A DNA stretch of 64,000 bases from Candidatus Caenarcanales bacterium (GCA_030065015.1 JASJDU010000002.1:85051-149050), one strand, 5' to 3'. Shown: positions 7,777 to 33,757, numbered from the stretch's first letter. Notes: generated from the letters alone by a model not told the origin. A program made the numbers and translations.

Positions 7777-8256
7777 ATGGTTCTTATGGTTACTTCTACG
7801 CCAATTCCCCCAAATGAAGAAGAGACTGCTCAGGCTAAAAAGATAGAAGAGCAACTTAATTTAAAAGATTTTGTAGACAATCCAAGCTGTTCAGATCAAG
7901 AGGAAGCACAGCAGAATTTTCAACTGCAGTTGAATGGTAAAGCTTTTCCTATTCCAGCAACAATGAGAAAATTATTGATATCTCTCATTAGAAATATGGC
8001 AGAGGGAAAAGCGGTCACTCTCATTCCATTGGATAGCGAACTTACAACTCAACAAGCTGCTGATTACCTTAACGTTTCTAGACCATATTTAATTGGTTTA
8101 CTTAATGAAGGAAAAATCGATTATCGAAAAGTAGGGAAACATAGAAGAGTTTTATTCAAGGATTTAGTAATTTATAAAGAAGAAAGCTACAAAAGAAGTA
8201 TGGAAGCTCTTGATGAAATTACCAAAACATCTCAAGAACTTGGTTTATACAAATAA
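7777..8256 (+). CDS. Excisionase-like (HTH_17) DNA-binding protein, putative antitoxin
   Basis: ELTTQQAADYLNVSRPYL..VGKHRRV. Confidence 0.88.
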   Translation: MVLMVTSTPIPPNEEETAQAKKIEEQLNLKDFVDNPSCSDQEEAQQNFQLQLNGKAFPIPATMRKLLISLIRNMAEGKAVTLIPLDSELTTQQAADYLNVSRPYLIGLLNEGKIDYRKVGKHRRVLFKDLVIYKEESYKRSMEALDEITKTSQELGLYK

Positions 8257-8855
8257 TGTTCTCAAGTAACTTTACTGTTATTTATGACGCAAACGTTTTA
8301 TATGATTCGGTATTAAGAGATTTGCTTGTACAATTAGCAACCGAAGAATTATTCAAAGCAAGATGGACGTTGCAAATTCAACAAGAATGGTCATCAAAAT
8401 TATTAAAAGAATTACGAAGAAAAGATAAAAAAGATTTTTCAATAAAAAAGAACAAAATCAATAGAACAATTGAATTGATGAATGAGGCAGTAGAGGACTG
8501 TCTGGTAAGAGATTATGACCACTATATTGATATTCTAGAACTACCGGACTTAAGGGATAAGCATGTCTTGGCAGCAGGAATTAAGTGTGGTGCTCAAGTT
8601 ATAGTCACCGACAATTCAAAACATTTTCCTCAAAAAGAACTAGAAAAATACGATATTGAAGCTCAAAACCCAGCCATTTTTACAAAAAACGTAATTGGTT
8701 TAACAGAATTCAAGGTTATTAGTTCTGTTAAAAGCATTTTAAATCGTCTCATTAATCCACCTCTATCTATTGAAGAATTAATTGAAATGTACAGAAATCG
8801 TGGGCTGGAGAGTTTATGTAGCTTTTTAGAAAAGAATATGCATGAATTCAATTAA
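8256..8855 (+). CDS. PIN-domain protein, putative toxin
   Basis: VIYDANVLY, LPD.RDKHVLAAGI, IVTDN..HFP; overlaps the upstream stop codon. Confidence 0.88.
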   Translation: MFSSNFTVIYDANVLYDSVLRDLLVQLATEELFKARWTLQIQQEWSSKLLKELRRKDKKDFSIKKNKINRTIELMNEAVEDCLVRDYDHYIDILELPDLRDKHVLAAGIKCGAQVIVTDNSKHFPQKELEKYDIEAQNPAIFTKNVIGLTEFKVISSVKSILNRLINPPLSIEELIEMYRNRGLESLCSFLEKNMHEFN

Positions 8856-25719: not shown

Positions 25720-26358
25720 TTAGTAGGAAACCGTTCCTTCTTTCTTATTTCCAGGTTTTGATGTTGATAGCACAACATGAGCTCCGTTTTTGCATTGGAA
25801 CTCCATGCCTGAATGTCCCGACAATGCATCTTTGCTGAAATCTACCTTTTTTACCATTGAGTCTGGATTTTGAAAGTTGATTGTTTCCTCTTGACCTCTT
25901 AAAAGAAATATATCTTTTTGATTGCGATTTTCTTTGATTTGAGCGATGAATTGATCGTCTTTGGTTGCTGAACAGATCTCATTTTCTTTAGGCGTAAAGA
26001 TCGATCTTAGTAGCCTATAATATTTTTTTCCTTCAACTTCTTTTGTCTGAACTGGAGAATCAACATTGGCTATTCTCCCATAATCACCTTCTTCTAGGCC
26101 TGACGCATAGAAGTATTTATTTGTACAATGTGCGACTGTCAACCCATCTTCATTTGTTGAGCAACCCCTCCCGGATTTATTGCTTTCGTACCAAACACCT
26201 TCTAAAGGTGTCCAACCTCTGGGTGGTGGAGTGTTGTTAAGAATATTCAGCAGCTTTGGGTTTATAACTGTATCACCATGATGTGGGTTCTTAAATATTG
26301 AACGACTTCCGTATCTTAGGAGATTTATTAAGGTTTTTTGTTCGATTGAAGGAGGCAT
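25720..26358 (-). CDS. Divergent trypsin-like serine protease (paralog 1)
   Basis: LTVAHC (H77), GDYGRI (D92), GHSG (S183). Confidence 0.6.
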   Translation of the reverse strand: MPPSIEQKTLINLLRYGSRSIFKNPHHGDTVINPKLLNILNNTPPPRGWTPLEGVWYESNKSGRGCSTNEDGLTVAHCTNKYFYASGLEEGDYGRIANVDSPVQTKEVEGKKYYRLLRSIFTPKENEICSATKDDQFIAQIKENRNQKDIFLLRGQEETINFQNPDSMVKKVDFSKDALSGHSGMEFQCKNGAHVVLSTSKPGNKKEGTVSY

Positions 26359-26377: not shown

Positions 26378-27025
26378 TTAGTAGGAAACGGTTCCATACT
26401 TTTTGTTATTAACATTAGAAGTTGACACTACAACTCTCGCTCCAGAGTGGCACTTGAATTCGGTTCCTGATGTTCCATTGTGTACTTTTCGGTTATAGTC
26501 TCCTACTCTTACCATTGAATCTGGACTTGCGGTGTTTATAGTGAGCATTTGATTTCCAGTGTCAGAAGAGAATGTGTCTCTTTGTAAATCTTCTAGCCTA
26601 AGTTGAGTCCGTAAACCACTTCCATTAGTGGCACGGCAGATTTCACCATGCTTGGGAACTACTTTGGAGGTTAAAAGCCTATAGTAATGCTTATTTCCTA
26701 TCTTTCTTATTTGTACAGGACTATCAACATTGTGTACTCTTTTGTAATCATTATTTTCAACTCCAGAAATGAAAAAACTTCTTTTTGCACAATGAGCAAC
26801 TGTTACGCCATCTTTTGTTACTTGACATCCAGAACCTGATTTATTGGCACTATACCATTTACTGTTCTCTAATAATTTCCATCCTTGGGGGACTGGGGTT
26901 GAATTGAGTTTACTTAAAATATTTTGGTCATTAATGGGTTCACCATGGCTTGGATTCCCAAATATTTGTCGATTACCAACTATTCCTATATTTTGATTGA
27001 GTCTCTCTTGAACCGATGGAGGCAT
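26378..27025 (-). CDS. Divergent trypsin-like serine protease (paralog 2)
   Basis: VTVAHC (H78), NDYKRV (D93), GTSG (S186); colinear with paralog 1. Confidence 0.6.
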   Translation of the reverse strand: MPPSVQERLNQNIGIVGNRQIFGNPSHGEPINDQNILSKLNSTPVPQGWKLLENSKWYSANKSGSGCQVTKDGVTVAHCAKRSFFISGVENNDYKRVHNVDSPVQIRKIGNKHYYRLLTSKVVPKHGEICRATNGSGLRTQLRLEDLQRDTFSSDTGNQMLTINTASPDSMVRVGDYNRKVHNGTSGTEFKCHSGARVVVSTSNVNNKKYGTVSY

Positions 27026-27700: not shown

Positions 27701-29812
27701 TTAACCTGCACCCGAAGTTAGCATATTTGAAGAACTACCTTCAATATCTCCAATATCGATTGTATTAAGAATTTCAACCTTGAAGTCGGTTGACAACTCA
27801 ACGTAAGACATAACCACAATTTGTGTATCAAAGTTCTGTATTAATCTTGCTAGCGGGAGTCTGATGCCGGGATTACAAACAATAACCGGTCTTCTTTCTA
27901 ATTGGCCGTATACTTCCGTTACTGAGTCTACAATTTTTCCTATGACTCTTCTTGCTTGTTCGGGATCTAGAGTTAAAACGAACTTGTCTTCTATCCTTTG
28001 CAAGGATTCCTCCATTTGCTGCTCAATCTCTGGACTTAAAGCTATGGCAAGGATGGTTTTATCAGCAGCGTGTTGAGCACATATTTGGCGTGCTAAACAC
28101 ATGCGGACTTTCTCGGATAATAAATCTGCATCTCTGATTGTTTGACCGAAATCTTCCAGTCTTTCGAGAATATAATGAATGTCTCTAATGCTTACTTTTT
28201 CTTTAAGCAAGTTGATGAGTATCTTGCGTAAATCGGTTATTTGAAGAATATTAGGGGTGACATTATCCACTAGAGGAGGATCAACTTGCCTAACTTGGTC
28301 AATTATTTTTCTTACATCAACCTTCGTGAACAATTCTTCAATATGTAAAATCACGGTTTCGGAAACGTGATAAGTGATAGCTTGTACTGGTGTTAAGTAT
28401 GGTCTATTCCATTTACGGTCCTTGATTAACTCTTCTAAATAATCCGGCTGTACCCAATAGGCAGCTTCTTTTAAATTGGGTTCCCAGGCGTTTAATGCAT
28501 TCGGTGGAGGAGTGTTAAATAATTTATCCCAGTGAGATTTGAGAATCAAGTATCTTTGAGGATAAACCTCAGAGCTGGATACCGTATTTCCTCGCACAAT
28601 TATGCGGTATTCGTATGGACCAATTAGCCTTGCGTCACAGATTCGTACCGGGGGCAAAATGTACCCAAATGTTAAGGTCATATGTTGCCGAAGAGAGCCA
28701 ATATCTTCGATTAACCGCCCTCCGCTTGCTGGATCTGCAAGCTCAATTAAATTACTCCCAACATGAACTGAAAGAGCATCAACTCCCAAAAGACTATACA
28801 TTTGTTCTGGAGTTGTGGGTGGTTTGGTTTGCTCTTGTATTTGAGTTTCAACCTGCTCAGTTTGTTGAACTTGAGTTGCTTTGAGAGCATTTAATCCTAT
28901 AAAAGAGATTAATCCACCTAAAGGAACAAAGAAGAACCAGGGCATGCCAGGAAGAAAGCCAATCATTCCAACCAATGCACCTGCAATAATAAGAGCCATT
29001 GGAGTTTGAAGAAATTGAGCAATCACATCCGTACTTAGACTTTCTCCAGAAGAGGTGGATCGAGTAACGATAATTCCAGTTGCAACTGCGGTTATGAGTG
29101 CTGGTACTTGTGCTCCGAGAGCGTCTCCAATTGTTAAAATGACGTATTTGCCGGCTGCGTATCCTGGATCGTAACCCTTTTGCAGTATTCCTATTCCTAG
29201 TCCTCCAAGAAGGTTCACAACGGTCATGATAATTCCGGCGATCGCATCTCCTTTTACAAATTTACTTGCACCGTCCATTGCTCCGTAAAGAGAACTCTCT
29301 CTCTCTAAGTCTCTTCTTCTTGTTTGAGCGACTTCCGGGGGAATTAATCCAGCATTAAGTTCTCCATCGATTGCCATTTGTTTACCTGGCATTGCATCCA
29401 ATGCGAATCTCGCTGATACTTCTGCAATACGTTCTGCGCCTTTTGTGATAACCATGAATTGCACGATCGTTATCACGACGAATAAAATAACCCCTACCGC
29501 CGGATTACCTGCTGCTACAATTCGACCGAAGGTTTCAATGACTTTTCCCGCATACCCTTCTGAGAGGATTAACCTTGTTGAAGCTATGTTTAAGCCCAAT
29601 CGGAATAAGGTAGCCGTTAATATTGCGGTTGGTAATATAGCAAGATCAATTGGGCGATTTAAGAATAGAGAGGTGCCCAAGAGAATCACAGCAATAGCAA
29701 TATTCAAGGATATAAACATATCCAGAATAAATGGTGGCAAGGGAACAACGATAATTGCCATGATGGCAAAGATCCCTAGTGCCAGAATTATGTCGCTAAT
29801 GCCGCCTTTCAT
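27701..29812 (-). CDS. flhA: FHIPEP-family type III export gate protein (FlhA/SctV)
   Basis: GAERIAEVSARFALDAMPGKQMAID, GAMDGASKFVKGDA, LLKEKVSIRD. Confidence 0.93.
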   Translation of the reverse strand: MKGGISDIILALGIFAIMAIIVVPLPPFILDMFISLNIAIAVILLGTSLFLNRPIDLAILPTAILTATLFRLGLNIASTRLILSEGYAGKVIETFGRIVAAGNPAVGVILFVVITIVQFMVITKGAERIAEVSARFALDAMPGKQMAIDGELNAGLIPPEVAQTRRRDLERESSLYGAMDGASKFVKGDAIAGIIMTVVNLLGGLGIGILQKGYDPGYAAGKYVILTIGDALGAQVPALITAVATGIIVTRSTSSGESLSTDVIAQFLQTPMALIIAGALVGMIGFLPGMPWFFFVPLGGLISFIGLNALKATQVQQTEQVETQIQEQTKPPTTPEQMYSLLGVDALSVHVGSNLIELADPASGGRLIEDIGSLRQHMTLTFGYILPPVRICDARLIGPYEYRIIVRGNTVSSSEVYPQRYLILKSHWDKLFNTPPPNALNAWEPNLKEAAYWVQPDYLEELIKDRKWNRPYLTPVQAITYHVSETVILHIEELFTKVDVRKIIDQVRQVDPPLVDNVTPNILQITDLRKILINLLKEKVSIRDIHYILERLEDFGQTIRDADLLSEKVRMCLARQICAQHAADKTILAIALSPEIEQQMEESLQRIEDKFVLTLDPEQARRVIGKIVDSVTEVYGQLERRPVIVCNPGIRLPLARLIQNFDTQIVVMSYVELSTDFKVEILNTIDIGDIEGSSSNMLTSGAG

Positions 29813-29970
29813 TAAGCTTAATTTTGTTGTCTAGACTTTAAGGCTTAAGAGAATAAGAAATGATGTTATTCCTATATACTATTATGCCTATTTATAGATC
29901 TTTAAAACTAAGAACAAGTTAAATAAGCTATTGTTAAATCGATTTGTTTCTCAATTGAAGGCAATTAGCT

Positions 29971-30627
29971 ATGCAAATTAATTCTTTAAGCAATAAATTT
30001 GTTTATTCAAAGAATAAAGATTCAGATAAATTGATGATTGTTCTTCATGGTTTGGGTGATAGTTCTAATGGATATAAATGGTTGCCAAAGACTTTAAATT
30101 TACCTGAACTCAATTATCTATTTCTTGATGCCCCTGATCAATATTATGAAGGTTATTCGTGGTACAAAATCCCAGAGGGTAAAATTAAGAATAGATTATC
30201 AGATCTGGAAATACAATCTGTAAAAAGAAGTAGAGATCTTTTGTGGGAGACTCTTGAAGAAATACAAGAACAGGGAACGAGTATAAATGATGTTTTTCTT
30301 TTTGGGTTTTCTCAAGGTTGTGTCATGAGTTTGGAGCTTTGCTTAAGATATCCCAAGGTTTTTGCTGGTATTTGTGGTATCAGTGGGTATTTGTTTAATC
30401 CGCTAGCAATTGAAGAGGATTTGAGTGCAAAAGCTAAATTGCAAAATATATTAATTACTCATGGTCAATATGATGATCTAATTCCAATTAAACGTGTAAA
30501 CCAAGGAGTTGATTTCTTAAGACAGCTTGGATTGAAAGTGAGGTTTGAGAAATATCCCAAAGCACATACGATCGATCCTTATGAGGAATTAAGCTTAATT
30601 AGAGAATGGATAGTCAAGAGTATTTAG
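29971..30627 (+). CDS. Phospholipase/carboxylesterase (alpha/beta hydrolase)
   Basis: LHGLGD, GFSQG, HG.YDD, AH triad. Confidence 0.9.
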   Translation: MQINSLSNKFVYSKNKDSDKLMIVLHGLGDSSNGYKWLPKTLNLPELNYLFLDAPDQYYEGYSWYKIPEGKIKNRLSDLEIQSVKRSRDLLWETLEEIQEQGTSINDVFLFGFSQGCVMSLELCLRYPKVFAGICGISGYLFNPLAIEEDLSAKAKLQNILITHGQYDDLIPIKRVNQGVDFLRQLGLKVRFEKYPKAHTIDPYEELSLIREWIVKSI

Positions 30628-30634
30628 TTTTTGC

Positions 30635-31246
30635 TTAAGCTTCTAATGGTTCTTCGGGTGCAAAATAATCTCTAACTGCATCTTGTGAAGACCTTGGTTG
30701 GGCAATTGGAGTGTTGAAGACTGCTCTGAGGCCTTGTGTAATTCCCACAACCCCACTTATTGCCCCGAGGACAGGACCAACGGAGTATGCATATCTAGCA
30801 AAGTCACTGCTAGTACCAAATAAACCAGCTATTCCTTGAGACATAGTACTTAGAGAATCAAGGAAAGACATCCCAGAAGATAACCCACCGAAAACAGAAC
30901 TTGAATATAAAGATTCTGGAGGCAAATCAAGTGGTGATATTTTGTTCAGTAAAGCGCTCGTTGCTGAACTGGATGCTTCTGTTGCTATTGAAATTGCGTT
31001 TGGGTTTGTTCCTGCAGGGCCGAAGTTGTTAAATAGACCTGGTCCAAACGTTCCACTTGAATTTAGCGAGCTTAACAGAGAGTCAAAATTACCATCAGTA
31101 TTTCCCCCTGTTGCGCCAAATCCTCCCAGAGGATATGCCCCAAGACCGTTAAAATAACCAGAGTTAGCCAATCCAATGGTACCAAATTGGTTTGGATTGT
31201 ATTGAGGAATTGTATTGTTGAGATTGTTTGCTGTTCCTGATGACAT
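30635..31246 (-). CDS. Hypothetical Gly/Ser/Asn-rich protein with a C-terminal hydrophobic segment
   Basis: 12 bp downstream of the flgG-like gene on the same strand. Confidence 0.75.
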   Translation of the reverse strand: MSSGTANNLNNTIPQYNPNQFGTIGLANSGYFNGLGAYPLGGFGATGGNTDGNFDSLLSSLNSSGTFGPGLFNNFGPAGTNPNAISIATEASSSATSALLNKISPLDLPPESLYSSSVFGGLSSGMSFLDSLSTMSQGIAGLFGTSSDFARYAYSVGPVLGAISGVVGITQGLRAVFNTPIAQPRSSQDAVRDYFAPEEPLEA

Positions 31247-31258
31247 TTTCTAAACCCC

Positions 31259-31993
31259 TTATCCTAGTGCGCCAGTTAGTGTTCTTACGTACTCTCTTTG
31301 ACTTGTATTTAGCAGTTGAGTTATCCTCGCGTACGTCGATATCTTTTGATTCATCTGTCTGAAAATTGCAAACTCCTTAGGTCCATTTACATTAGAACCT
31401 TCTAAAGCCCCTTGTCTTACTCTGGTTTGGGAAGTTGGCCCCAAACAGACATGTAGTGATTTACCCGCTTCGTCGGTTGGTTTGTAAACAGAGCCATCAA
31501 AGTCTAATTTGTCTGCTGCAGGATAATTAACAACTTGTAAATCCGTTATTTTTATTTGGCTTCCATCCGGTCTTTTTCCCAAAACAGAACCATCAACGGC
31601 TATCTCCAAATCCGAGAATCCTTCAGGTACTTTTACTTTTGGAAAAACTAAATTTTCTCCCGATTTTAAATAACCATCTTTATCGGTTCCTAAGTTGAGA
31701 TTTCTTGTTAAAACAGTTTCATCGTTATTATCTAAAAGAACAAAAAAACCTTTTCCCTCCAATGAAACATCGTTTGGTCTATTGGTTATGCTTAATTTCC
31801 CAGCTTCCATATTCCTCTGAGTTCTCGAATCGTCTATTATGTCATCAAAAGAAATTGGCCTTTCAGCTTTATATCCTGGTGTTGTAGCGTTGGTGATATT
31901 TTTGGTGACAACTTCAAGTTCAGAAAAAGCTTTTCCTGATTTGACTTGAAGATCGTTTATTAAGGCGCCGAATTGCATAGAAAAATTTCCCAA
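31259..31993 (-). CDS. flgG: Flagellar rod FlgG-like protein (divergent)
   Basis: NITNATTPGYK, DVSLEGKGFF, VRQGALEGSNVN. Confidence 0.75.
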   Translation of the reverse strand: MGNFSMQFGALINDLQVKSGKAFSELEVVTKNITNATTPGYKAERPISFDDIIDDSRTQRNMEAGKLSITNRPNDVSLEGKGFFVLLDNNDETVLTRNLNLGTDKDGYLKSGENLVFPKVKVPEGFSDLEIAVDGSVLGKRPDGSQIKITDLQVVNYPAADKLDFDGSVYKPTDEAGKSLHVCLGPTSQTRVRQGALEGSNVNGPKEFAIFRQMNQKISTYARITQLLNTSQREYVRTLTGALG

Positions 31994-32090
31994 ACCTAAG
32001 ATATTTAATCCTCATTTGGAGAAAGTGAAAATCCGTTACTTGCTTTATATTTAGTCTGTTATATAAGGAATTGAAGGGTTTTCCCTAGCT

Positions 32091-32927
32091 TTATAGATTT
32101 CTTAGTAGTATTTGTACCGCTTCATTATTCAATCTAATACCCGTTGTGAATAAGTTGTTGGTTAATGTTAGTAAGTTGTTCTTTTGAGATAAACCCATAA
32201 ACTCAATTGGAAGATTCACGTTTGATTGTTCTACATAGTGTTGCATTACTTTGCCTTTGGGTTTTAGGTTAACTTCTAAGTAACCGAGCTCCTTGCCATT
32301 GAGTTTGTCTGTAACTTTACCGTTGAAGTCTATATTCAGTTCTTTCATACTCCAATCAACGGGGGCCCCATCTTTGTAACAAACTTCCAGTGGAATTTCT
32401 TTGTCTACAGTTACCATCCTTCCTTTATTATCAAACTTAAATCTTCCATCACGAGTATATTGTCCATTTGCTAACTTAAAACCTTTTCCATCACCGGCAA
32501 TTGCAAGGTCTAAATGCCAATCGGTTTTTTCAAGCTTGCCCGGTGTTTCGTCAATAATTGGATTTCCATTGCTGTCTAGATAAGGCAATATTCTTCTATA
32601 ACCTGGAGTATCCGCGTTTGTTATATTCTGAATTGTAGATTTGATTGCCTTTTGAATATTCTCTCGACTTTCTTTTACCGCTTTATCGGAATTGCAGTTG
32701 AAAGGTTTAACCGGGTGACAACCTGCTGAAGGTTTTTGTGAAGTTGAGTTTTCGTCAAGAGATGTATTTGGTTGAGCTTGTAAAAACTTTTTTAAAGTAT
32801 TCTGGAAAGAATTAGGTCCTTCTTTTAAAATTTGGCTCGTTTGCAGCTCTTTTGAAGAGCCAATTGCTGGAGAACCCACTAGGTTATCCAGGGGTGAAAT
32901 ATATGAATTGTAAAAAGGATCCACCAC
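32091..32927 (-). CDS. flgF: Flagellar rod FlgF-like protein with a long N-terminal extension
   Basis: NITNADTPGYR, DLAIAGDG, YTRDGRF, VEQSNVN; upstream of the flgG-like gene. Confidence 0.65.
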   Translation of the reverse strand: MVDPFYNSYISPLDNLVGSPAIGSSKELQTSQILKEGPNSFQNTLKKFLQAQPNTSLDENSTSQKPSAGCHPVKPFNCNSDKAVKESRENIQKAIKSTIQNITNADTPGYRRILPYLDSNGNPIIDETPGKLEKTDWHLDLAIAGDGKGFKLANGQYTRDGRFKFDNKGRMVTVDKEIPLEVCYKDGAPVDWSMKELNIDFNGKVTDKLNGKELGYLEVNLKPKGKVMQHYVEQSNVNLPIEFMGLSQKNNLLTLTNNLFTTGIRLNNEAVQILLRNL

Positions 32928-33001
32928 AGATATCTTTTGCCACGGAATAAAGAAGCCGTTAATTAATTAATGATTTTAGGGGATTCCCGTGGAAATTTAT
33001 C

Positions 33002-33643
33002 TCAAACTGCTTGAGTTGTAGGTGTGAAAGTTGTTATGTTCTCGATTCGAGCAATAAACTGTTCCATTTTGCTTAAAAAACCTAGAGTGTTTCTTTCAGC
33101 TTTTTTTCTCCAATCTTCATCTTTTTTCTTTTGTTTTAATTCCCATTCAGCATTTGCAACTTCCGCTTCTACAAGATGATTTGTCACTTCTTTGGCTTTT
33201 GGAGGTGGTGAATTGAATGGAAGTAGATTCTTAGGATTCTTTATTTTTATTGCTTTTTGAGAAGCTTGGTTGTAATTTGCAATTTTTAATTCTTTTAGTT
33301 TGTTTACTAGTTCTTTTGGAGGGGGAGGATTGCTAACAATTCTAAATTCTGTATGCAAAACAGGATCTCTTTCTGTTGGACCTCCGAAGCCTAGTCGGAA
33401 TGAACTATCACTTGGTTTATTTACATAAGAGCTATCTGCCCTATTAAAAAATGCAGTTTCTTTGCCTTGAGAAGACTTTGTGGCCTGGTCAGCACCTGAT
33501 GTTGAATCCGAGGCCACTGCCCCTTGTTCGTTTTCTGCGAATTGACGATTAGAATTACCAGCAGCCGAAGCAGCGGATAGTTGGTGGGTCCAATATGCTG
33601 CAGCTGCTGGATTGTTTATGTTGTTGTAATTAGGACCAGTCAT
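33002..33643 (-). CDS. Hypothetical protein, first gene of the flg-like cluster
   Basis: 213-aa ORF with a low-complexity N-terminus. Confidence 0.75.
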   Translation of the reverse strand: MTGPNYNNINNPAAAAYWTHQLSAASAAGNSNRQFAENEQGAVASDSTSGADQATKSSQGKETAFFNRADSSYVNKPSDSSFRLGFGGPTERDPVLHTEFRIVSNPPPPKELVNKLKELKIANYNQASQKAIKIKNPKNLLPFNSPPPKAKEVTNHLVEAEVANAEWELKQKKKDEDWRKKAERNTLGFLSKMEQFIARIENITTFTPTTQAV

Positions 33644-33730
33644 AATTGGCTACCTAACGCTTAAAGTATCAATGAGTTTTATATGGTTTTAAAATAGGAG
33701 TAAATTATTATCCTGAAACTTAAACGTCTT

Positions 33731-33757
33731 AAATCGGCTGAATTTCACATCTCGTTA
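33731..33757 (-). promoter_or_regulatory. Possible sigma-28 (FliA)-like promoter
   Basis: TAAC-N15-GCCGATTT on the minus strand versus consensus TAAA-N15-GCCGATAA. Confidence 0.3.

Follow-up and report, generated by a model that had tools for sequence, protein, structure and literature searches.

The DNA analyzed in this study is a window of 64,000 nucleotides from Candidatus Caenarcanales bacterium (GCA_030065015.1 JASJDU010000002.1:85051-149050), in which the genes between positions 27,701 and 33,757 had been noted as a possible flagellum-derived type III export cluster. On the minus strand lie the gene of a 703-amino-acid (aa) FlhA, the FHIPEP export-gate protein (27701..29812), which forms a separate transcription unit, and a rod operon whose three genes encode a FlgF-like proximal-rod protein of 278 aa (32091..32927), a FlgG-like distal-rod protein of 244 aa (31259..31993), and a Gly/Ser-rich, acidic, family-restricted protein of 203 aa (30635..31246, hereafter ORF 30635, for open reading frame). 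An Abhydrolase_2 esterase on the plus strand (29971..30627; PF02230, 111.4 bits), which is outside the system, separates FlhA from the rod operon. Upstream of the FlgF-like gene lies an unconserved ORF of 213 aa (33002..33643, minus strand; ORF 33002), whose membership is doubtful and which may not be a gene. Judged from comparative sequence analysis, FlhA and the rod operon both belong to a second type III system of the flagellar type, here named B, whose genes are dispersed and which appears to be paralogous to the canonical flagellum, vertically inherited in the class Vampirovibrionia, and the sole such system in the source genome.

The Pfam and NCBIfam matches support the positions and families given in the preliminary description for the FlhA, esterase, FlgG-like and FlgF-like genes, and ORFs 30635 and 33002 have no match in either database. 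The window FlhA matches PF00771 over almost its full length (704.9 bits, residues 17-676) and carries the charged residues of the transmembrane region (R94, R147, R154, D158, K203, D208 and D249) that place it in the FHIPEP family. It scores higher with TIGR01398 for FlhA (670.7 bits, cut-off 772.1) than with TIGR01399 for SctV (551.5 bits), and both scores are below the curated NCBIfam cut-offs. The FlgG-like protein reaches 99.9 bits with TIGR03506 (cut-off 70.25) and 35.9 bits with PF22692; the FlgF-like protein reaches 61.9 bits with TIGR02490 and 25.6 bits with PF22692, both below the cut-offs. No N- or C-terminal rod motif of Pfam was matched by either protein, which fits the eroded terminal motifs reported for them earlier. 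The N-terminal extension of about 90 aa that had been noted in the FlgF-like protein is real: it aligns with the orthologue of the closest relative (G007, nearest genus), with the common motifs PLDNLVGS and GCHP, and is therefore considered to be coding. The two FlgF-like proteins are 51% identical overall. The best match of the window protein is the FlgF-like gene in the B operon of another relative, G009, and FlgG-like orthologues were found in 7/7 loci examined in the family. Among the fetched FlhA loci, the esterase adjoins FlhA only in G007 (L119), and the adjacency of FlhA and the rod operon is kept only in G007, so this adjacency is not a conserved feature. A Pfam scan of 40 other ORFs of the window, which are housekeeping genes or unknowns, returned no further flagellar family, as had been stated for the whole 64 kb.

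ORF 30635 is, on the evidence of its conservation, a real and family-restricted member of the rod operon. It starts 12 bases past the stop of the FlgG-like gene, is directly downstream of that gene in all seven family loci, and has homologues of 40-63% identity in seven of the eight family genomes; the sole match outside the family is weak and probably spurious. Among 1.84 billion representative proteins, only 14 clusters were found at E <= 0.001. The orthologues are acidic, contain 11-18% Gly and 13-17% Ser, and have neither Cys nor Trp in 8/8 cases. A hydrophobic stretch at the N-terminus is lacking, and a single segment of moderate hydrophobicity lies near residue 140-160. The protein is predicted to be largely disordered (AlphaFold2 with eight orthologues; predicted local distance difference test, pLDDT, 44.5); the Atlas gave no match of 0.9 or more and a poor model, and no confident fold was obtained. 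For ORF 33002, none of the 40 relatives, G007 included, yielded a homologue, and it is therefore not to be counted as a partner. Thus, of the two orphan partners proposed in the preliminary description, only ORF 30635 was conserved next to the rod genes, and the remaining signal-less orphans listed there were not linked to B.

The source organism, of the class Vampirovibrionia (= Melainabacteria), had been suggested to be a non-photosynthetic relative of cyanobacteria, and this is supported by three observations. The closest FlhA proteins in named records, at 43-45% identity and within the FlhA clade of the window protein, are in records with titles such as Candidatus Gastranaerophilales, uncultured Vampirovibrio and Candidatus Melainabacteria; photosynthetic reaction-centre families were found neither in the source genome nor in eight relatives, with a positive Synechococcus control; and, among 200 sampled genomes of the phylum, no FlhA was found in the large-genome families typical of photosynthetic cyanobacteria. 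Bacteria of the Vampirovibrionia group are common in animal and human guts, and the life style of the source organism may be host-associated or predatory.

To place the locus in its class, 40 relatives were surveyed, with families coded f1-f10 and the family of the window as f1. The 14 genomes of f2, f4, f5, f9 and f10 are flagellated: each of them has flagellin, FliG_C and FlgI, two FliP and two FlhB, and 13/14 have two FlhA, the remaining one being a 650-contig assembly with one full FlhA and a C-terminal piece. The 20 genomes of f1, f6 and f7 have no flagellin, no FlgI and no FliG_C over the cut-off (one sub-threshold FliG_C match was seen in G002), and have one FlhB (20/20), one FlhA (20/20, split across two contig ends in G030) and one FliP (18/20, missed in two fragmented f1 assemblies). 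None of these six families was found in the six genomes of f3 and f8. The window FlhA is 65-86% identical to the single copies of its own family. The identity is 49-52% with the only copy in f7 and, in f4 and f10, with one member of the pair, and 43-45% with the f6 copy and, in f2, f5 and f9, again with one copy. In comparison, its identity is 34-39% to the other, flagellar copy of the flagellated genomes, here named A, and about 35-40% to FlhA of other phyla. A B-type FlhA match was present in 73/73 sampled f6 genomes. Between the cluster and G007, the nonsynonymous divergence (dN) is 0.12-0.39; synonymous sites are saturated, so no dN/dS ratio is given.

Two side observations were made on FlhA matches. 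ORFs of about 490-560 aa, whose match to FHIPEP is confined to its cytoplasmic half (profile positions ~308-656), occur in 6/6 f6 genomes and a few others, with G013:C6:10760-11788, G034:C3:317649-318671 and G009:C7:59407-60495 as examples and none in the source genome. In the phylum sample, 73/73 f6 genomes had at least two FlhA matches; these ORFs may be a stand-alone paralogue of the FlhA C-domain. The record CAYGPN010000002.1 is titled 'uncultured Gammaproteobacteria bacterium', and its matches are identical to those of a contig of G037, which belongs to the class of the window, so the label is probably wrong; clade-B-like matches titled Acinetobacter or Muribaculaceae may be mislabelled too.

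The phylogenetic position of the window FlhA was examined in quick IQ-TREE runs under LG+G4, with support from the Shimodaira-Hasegawa-like approximate likelihood ratio test (SH-aLRT) only, no mixture model or bootstrap, the most query-similar sequences as outgroups, and rooting on SctV as a convention. The first tree had 66 rows: the window protein, 14 single copies (seven from f1, three from f6 and four from f7), 11 B and 11 A copies of the flagellated relatives, 24 of 70 loci of other phyla (every third), and five SctV sequences from plasmid records. Some copies were left out of it, and the B copy of G017 was dropped because it is cut by a contig end. The B copies, including the window protein, formed one clade of 26 rows (SH-aLRT 100, stem 0.47); all 11 A copies grouped with the 24 FlhA of other phyla (97), and the five SctV stood apart (100). 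The window FlhA is therefore neither in the clade of canonical flagellar FlhA nor in that of SctV, which answers the phylogenetic check proposed in the preliminary description: B is a lineage of its own. The same clade (30 rows, SH-aLRT 100) was recovered in a tree of 87 rows, to which four named Melainabacteria-type records, 16 sister-class copies and one extra f6 copy had been added. There the A copies were sister to one copy of the sister classes (97), which suggests vertical inheritance of the true flagellum within the phylum's non-photosynthetic part. B was also one clade in the trees of FliP (49 rows, with every second outgroup dropped; 16 B rows, 100; six A copies with 27 rows of other phyla) and of FlhB (50 rows; 15 B rows, 99), and the inner split of B, f2/f5/f6/f9 versus f1/f4/f7/f10, was identical in the three proteins.

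A recent duplication of A within the class was considered as the origin of B and rejected, because the identity of B to A (34-39%) does not exceed that to FlhA of other phyla (35-40%) and B did not group with A in the three trees. A and B coexist in five families of the class, and the simplest reading of the sequences is that the ancestor shared by eight families had both, that A disappeared more than once (from f1, from f7 and from most of f6), and that B persisted wherever type III genes are left at all; an A-type FlhA is still present in the f6 genome G230. The preliminary description had supposed that the flagellar basal body was repurposed within this organism, and this has to be revised, as B dates at least to the ancestor of the eight families and stands beside a true flagellum in five. 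The sister classes contain a further divergent FlhA clade, C (seven rows, support 100: L206, L208, L210, L214, L216, L217 and L219), which is encoded in FlgB-FlgC-FliE-FliF-FlhA operons beside a copy sister to flagellar A. Clade C branched beside B and not with it, and a single clade made up of B and C was not rejected by an approximately unbiased (AU) test (p 0.137). If the two are the same, B may date to the ancestor of all non-photosynthetic cyanobacterial classes.

We compared FlhA residues, in E. coli numbering, among 26 B copies, 36 canonical copies (A and other phyla) and five SctV. The residues R94, R147, R154, D158, K203, D208, D249 and R391 are invariant in 26/26 B copies. The Tyr of the GYXLI motif is present in 33/36 canonical copies and in none of the B or SctV copies; F/Y459 is present in 36/36 canonical, 7/26 B and 1/5 SctV copies, and T490 in 36/36, 6/26 and 0/5, respectively. 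We take T490 to be linked to the chaperone-docking dimple. In Salmonella, R94, D208 and D249 have been reported to be critical for export (PMC3139655). F459 is located in the conserved substrate-recognising dimple of FlhA, the mutation F459A weakens the docking of FlgN-FlgK, and a role has also been described for the GYXLI motif (PMC9431611). As far as residues can tell, B-type FlhA has kept the export engine and has mostly lost the residues tied to the docking of filament substrates. Another hallmark is FliQ, which has a C-terminal tail of 47-289 aa in 15/15 B copies compared with 6-14 aa in 6/6 A copies; the B tails are polar and poorly conserved and follow the FliQ hairpin. FliI has the Walker A motif, and FlhB retains the Asn-Pro of its cleavage site. 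At the cleavage motif, most outgroups and the A copies of f2, f5 and f9 read NPTH, and B reads NP[VI]H, NPTH or NP[ED]H, with the His retained outside the family of the window.

The preliminary description regarded the cluster as minimal. It actually belongs to a set of some 20 genes, dispersed over at least 11 contigs besides that of the window. The source assembly has 2,054,334 bases in 74 contigs (C1-C74; 91.04% complete, 0.05% contaminated), and the window is C2:85051-149050. Parts were searched for with family profiles, neighbourhood scans, phmmer with the B operon of a relative, and hmmsearch with multi-locus B profiles. FliO-FliP-FliQ are encoded at C43:42974-44999, with FliR 3 kb off, past a helicase; FliQ itself occupies C43:42974-43981, its domain being residues 8-75 of a 335-aa frame. 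FlhB (C49:25790-26872) has no other system genes nearby, and the 716-aa FliF on C74 is isolated and scores 127.5 bits with TIGR00206 against 68.8 bits with the SctJ-type profile. FliI (C17) reaches 581.9 bits (cut-off 379.5). A FliN/SctQ-like protein of 372 aa (C15) has two FliMN_C (SpoA) stretches and scores for FliN and SctQ alike. FlgC (C41) was found by family and neighbourhood search. A FlgE/F/G-like protein of 311 aa (C1:100074-101009; TIGR03506, 38.6 bits, below the cut-off) is the orthologue of the 276-aa product of the last gene of the G009 operon and is, by sequence, too divergent for a call between hook and rod. The searches with B loci added FliH (C11:11443-12165), FliJ (C48), a lytic transglycosylase (C19), FliE (C41:73383-73712; E 2.3e-8), and, directly upstream of FliH, a weak candidate (C11:12279-12992; E 0.0024) for the protein that stands in the position of fliG. 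A 119-aa ORF before flgC (C41:5359-5718) was considered as FlgB; it has no family match and could not be aligned with the 117-aa ORF in the equivalent position of G009. All B parts are open frames, and the genes scanned around them have ordinary metabolic and informational functions. The source genome therefore holds the export core looked for (FlhA, FlhB, FliO/P/Q/R, FliI and FliF) together with FliH, FliJ, FliE, a FliN-like protein and rod proteins, i.e., the export gate, ATPase complex, MS (membrane/supramembrane) ring and rod of a bacterial flagellum. Fragments of an IS1-family transposase (DDE_Tnp_IS1 and an InsA-like HTH) were seen directly after fliF, at the contig end (C74:18035-18702; L015:12036-12703).

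The genes that are scattered in the source genome form a tidy operon in G009, a member of f2. Its order is a 336-aa unknown, FlgF-like, FlgG-like, a 117-aa ORF, FlgC, an SLT transglycosylase, FliE, FliF, a 317-aa protein in the fliG position, FliH, FlhA, FliI, FliJ, a 256-aa unknown and the 276-aa FlgE/F/G-like protein, which is the canonical order from flgB to fliJ with flhA placed between fliH and fliI. Families f6 and f9 and the named records of the Gastranaerophilales type share the core FliE-FliF-(fliG position)-FliH-FlhA; for f5, matches were obtained to FliF, FliH and FlhA and none for the ORF in the fliG position. The fliG-position protein is conserved, and its similarity to FliG is weak: FliG_M was matched in one of 13 members at E 6.3e-5, and the best profile match in the PDB was FliG 3hjl_A at E 0.03. 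AlphaFold2 modelled it with confidence (pLDDT 82.5). A Foldseek search of the PDB returned nothing at E <= 0.001, and VIA-align gave no match to FliG and only generic helical ones, the best being a cytomegalovirus IE1 chain with Z 11.3, a score common for helical models. No FliG_C domain was seen in this protein.

The motility parts of a flagellum were not found together with B where B is the only system, as the preliminary description had expected. Flagellin (PF00669) was not found in the source genome, and 0/20 B-only relatives gave a match, with 14/14 flagellated relatives and the control genomes positive. P (peptidoglycan)-ring FlgI (PF02119) was found in 0/21 B-only genomes, including the source, and in 14/14 flagellated relatives. 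FliG_C (PF01706) was not found in the source genome, nor over the cut-off in the 20 B-only relatives. In the source genome, FlgK (TIGR02492) gave only matches of 13-15 bits on the two rod genes, FliD (PF07195) gave none, and no MotA stator was found, the single MotA_ExbB match adjoining ExbD. The searches for flagellin, FliG_C, FlgK, FliD, FlgI and MotA each detected their own family in flagellated control genomes. A phmmer search of the source genome with the genes around four A-type FlhA loci, which are poor in flagellar genes, returned only B-type gate proteins and apparently unrelated genes. [quoted passage not shown]

Considering these results, we are inclined, by a modest preference, to regard B as a working, non-motile export or basal-body apparatus. 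In such an apparatus, the gate (FlhA, FlhB, FliP, the long-tailed FliQ and FliR, with FliO as assembly factor) would assemble in the FliF ring and would take its energy from the proton-motive force and from ATP through FliH/FliI/FliJ. The gate would export FliE and its own axial proteins, of which there are four or five of the rod type; a dedicated lytic transglycosylase would open the wall, and a non-rotating rod would be built through the peptidoglycan. Other, non-flagellin proteins might then be exported by the same gate into or across the envelope. The product of ORF 30635 is a candidate substrate or rod accessory, and more precise roles as substrate, cap or scaffold are guesses. A bolder proposal, which we put forward only tentatively and hold to be possible rather than probable, is that B is a third ancient type III branch beside the flagellum and the injectisome, i.e., a filament-less, non-rotating rod machine that exports non-flagellar proteins and has been vertically inherited since the ancestor of Vampirovibrionia. 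The hallmarks of this branch would be a FlhA without the docking residues for late substrates, a long-tailed FliQ, and no recognisable FliG torque domain.

Several points weigh against this interpretation. We infer the assembly, the lack of rotation and the secretion of B from gene content, paralogy, conservation and residue patterns. With 74 contigs and 91% completeness, each absence in the source genome is weak, and the weight lies on its repetition across the 20 relatives; divergent filament, hook or stator proteins could also evade the Pfam and NCBIfam models. The stem of B is long, so fast evolution may exaggerate how deep it branches. The fliG-position protein is a possible, not an established, FliG. 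In 5/5 genomes of the window's family (the source and L200-L203), the FlhB autocleavage motif is NP[STF]K, with Lys for His. No substrate was identified, and neither was an outer-membrane component, which leaves export past the periplasm without a stated route.

The alternative that survives best, although we consider it unlikely, is that B is a non-secretory structural device, which exports its own rod parts only and serves as an envelope anchor, a polarity mark, a nanotube or another membrane structure. In its favour, none of the B loci had recognisable effector or chaperone genes next to it, no outer-membrane channel was identified, and structures related to the flagellar T3SS (fT3SS) with unknown function, as well as a role of the fT3SS core in nanotubes, have been reported in a preprint (10.1101/2021.09.03.458937). 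However, a full FliH/I/J ATPase complex and an intact export engine are kept in reduced genomes, suggesting continuing export, and the flagellin-less fT3SS of Lysobacter enzymogenes OH11 is reported to promote non-flagellar secretion (PMC7688988), which is an analogue only.

It is improbable that B is a true second flagellum, i.e., a motile organelle with a filament, hook, junction and stator diverged beyond recognition, which might share the late parts of A. Second flagellar systems do occur in other bacteria, and four or five axial proteins are kept in B, one of them FlgE/F/G-like (311 aa in the source, 276 aa in G009). There are also conserved unknown ORFs in the B operons (336 and 256 aa in G009, and ORF 30635 in the window), and an ExbB/ExbD pair is present. 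However, flagellin, FlgI and FliG_C occur in 0/21 B-only genomes, FlgK, FliD and MotA were not found in the source genome, FlhA has mostly lost the residues conserved for docking filament-type substrates, and the product of ORF 30635 has no axial-protein terminal motif of Pfam and, with a pLDDT of 44.5, is predicted to be largely disordered.

Because the flagellated relatives carry two copies and the flagellin-less relatives keep the type of the window, we do not consider B to be a decayed flagellum. That its genes are a relic, left over from the flagellum of the lineage after the loss of motility and heading for deletion, is very improbable. In favour of a relic, the genome is small (2.05 Mb), the genes are singly scattered and, in the case of the rod proteins, divergent, fliF has a fragment of an IS1-type transposase at its side, and partial sets have been taken as genome reduction by Di Rienzi 2013 (MEL.A1; PMC3787301) and Soo 2014 (PMC4040986). 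However, the retained genes form a separate clade rather than A copies and coexist with A in flagellated genomes, all B genes found are open frames, the engine residues of FlhA are invariant in 26/26 copies, one FlhA and one FlhB are present in 20/20 flagellin-less relatives of three families and a B-type FlhA match in 73/73 f6 genomes, and synonymous divergence (dS) is saturated with dN low.

If B is indeed a non-motile export apparatus, it would be a second old and independent offshoot of the flagellum and thus a natural comparison for asking which core parts must change when rotation and filament are given up. Rod, MS ring and ATPase of the flagellar type are retained in B, and the filament, the P ring, the stator and the docking of late substrates have been shed. 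The comparison would also inform how new type III functions arise. With flagellated as well as B-only families in the class, a comparative test of the function is possible.

Two further observations in the window concern other genes. The adjacent ORFs at 25720-26358 and 26378-27025 (minus strand; 212 and 215 aa) are alike by eye: both start with MPPS, carry TVAHC and a Ser-Gly motif (SGHSGMEF or NGTSGTEF), and end with GTVSY. They have no Pfam or NCBIfam match and recall the His and Ser motifs of chymotrypsin-like proteases. At 7777-8855 (plus strand), adjacent HTH_17 and PIN_3 ORFs resemble a toxin-antitoxin-type pair.

Partial flagellar gene sets have been published from Melainabacteria and Gastranaerophilales (PMC3787301, PMC4040986 and preprint 10.64898/2026.04.24.720558), and, as far as their available text goes, these are very probably the same genes as B. 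The list of Di Rienzi for ACD20 has 13 MEL-COG flagellar genes, with flgG, flgG, flgC, fliF, fliH, flhA, fliI and flgE on one contig and a second flhA (PMC3787301), and it matches the B operon of G009. In the available parts of these sources, the sets were treated as an incomplete flagellum resulting from reduction or loss, or secretion was postulated. A secretion role has already been proposed there for the flagellar genes of non-flagellated Gastranaerophilales (preprint 10.64898/2026.04.24.720558). Thus the preliminary description, which presented an undescribed system, was anticipated in print as regards the partial gene set and the idea of secretion. In the literature covered, no account was found of a distinct paralogous system beside a complete flagellum in Melainabacteria; supplements and most subscription papers, which were outside the search, may show the duplication. 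The paralogous nature of B therefore seems to be new. On the present interpretation, the 'partial flagellar gene sets' that have been read as decay or motility would be a separate apparatus, relied on by about three quarters of Gastranaerophilales, a figure that follows from the count of about 25% with complete flagella given in the preprint's available text (10.64898/2026.04.24.720558).

Compared with the canonical flagellum, B has the families FlhA/B, FliOPQR, FliHIJ, FliF, FliE and FlgC/F/G-like in common, and its order in G009 corresponds to flgB-flgC-fliE-fliF-(fliG)-fliH-fliI-fliJ. It differs in forming a separate clade in the FlhA, FliP and FlhB trees, in the absence of flagellin, FlgK, FliD, FlgI, FliG_C and MotA from the results for the B-only source genome, in a FlhA without the GYXLI Tyr and most dimple residues, in the long tail of FliQ, and in the placement of flhA between fliH and fliI.

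Buchnera has basal bodies without flagellin, and this type of reduced flagellum resembles B in that flagellin is absent, the export apparatus is kept and non-flagellar export has been proposed. The proposal has been tested in Lysobacter, where the flagellin-less fT3SS of L. enzymogenes OH11 was reported to promote the secretion of non-flagellar proteins (PMC7688988). However, those systems are the organism's own flagellum minus some parts, whereas B is a paralogue of long standing, found beside a complete flagellum in sister families, and the set lost in the B-only lineages is the motility set.

The textbook example of a flagellum that became a secretion machine is the injectisome. B resembles it as a flagellum-related export machine without motility, and SctV, in the five sequences compared, is likewise without the GYXLI Tyr and T490. 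In contrast to the injectisome, the FlhA of B lies outside the SctV clade, its ring protein is of the FliF type (127.5 bits compared with 68.8 bits for SctJ), and a flagellar-type rod is kept.

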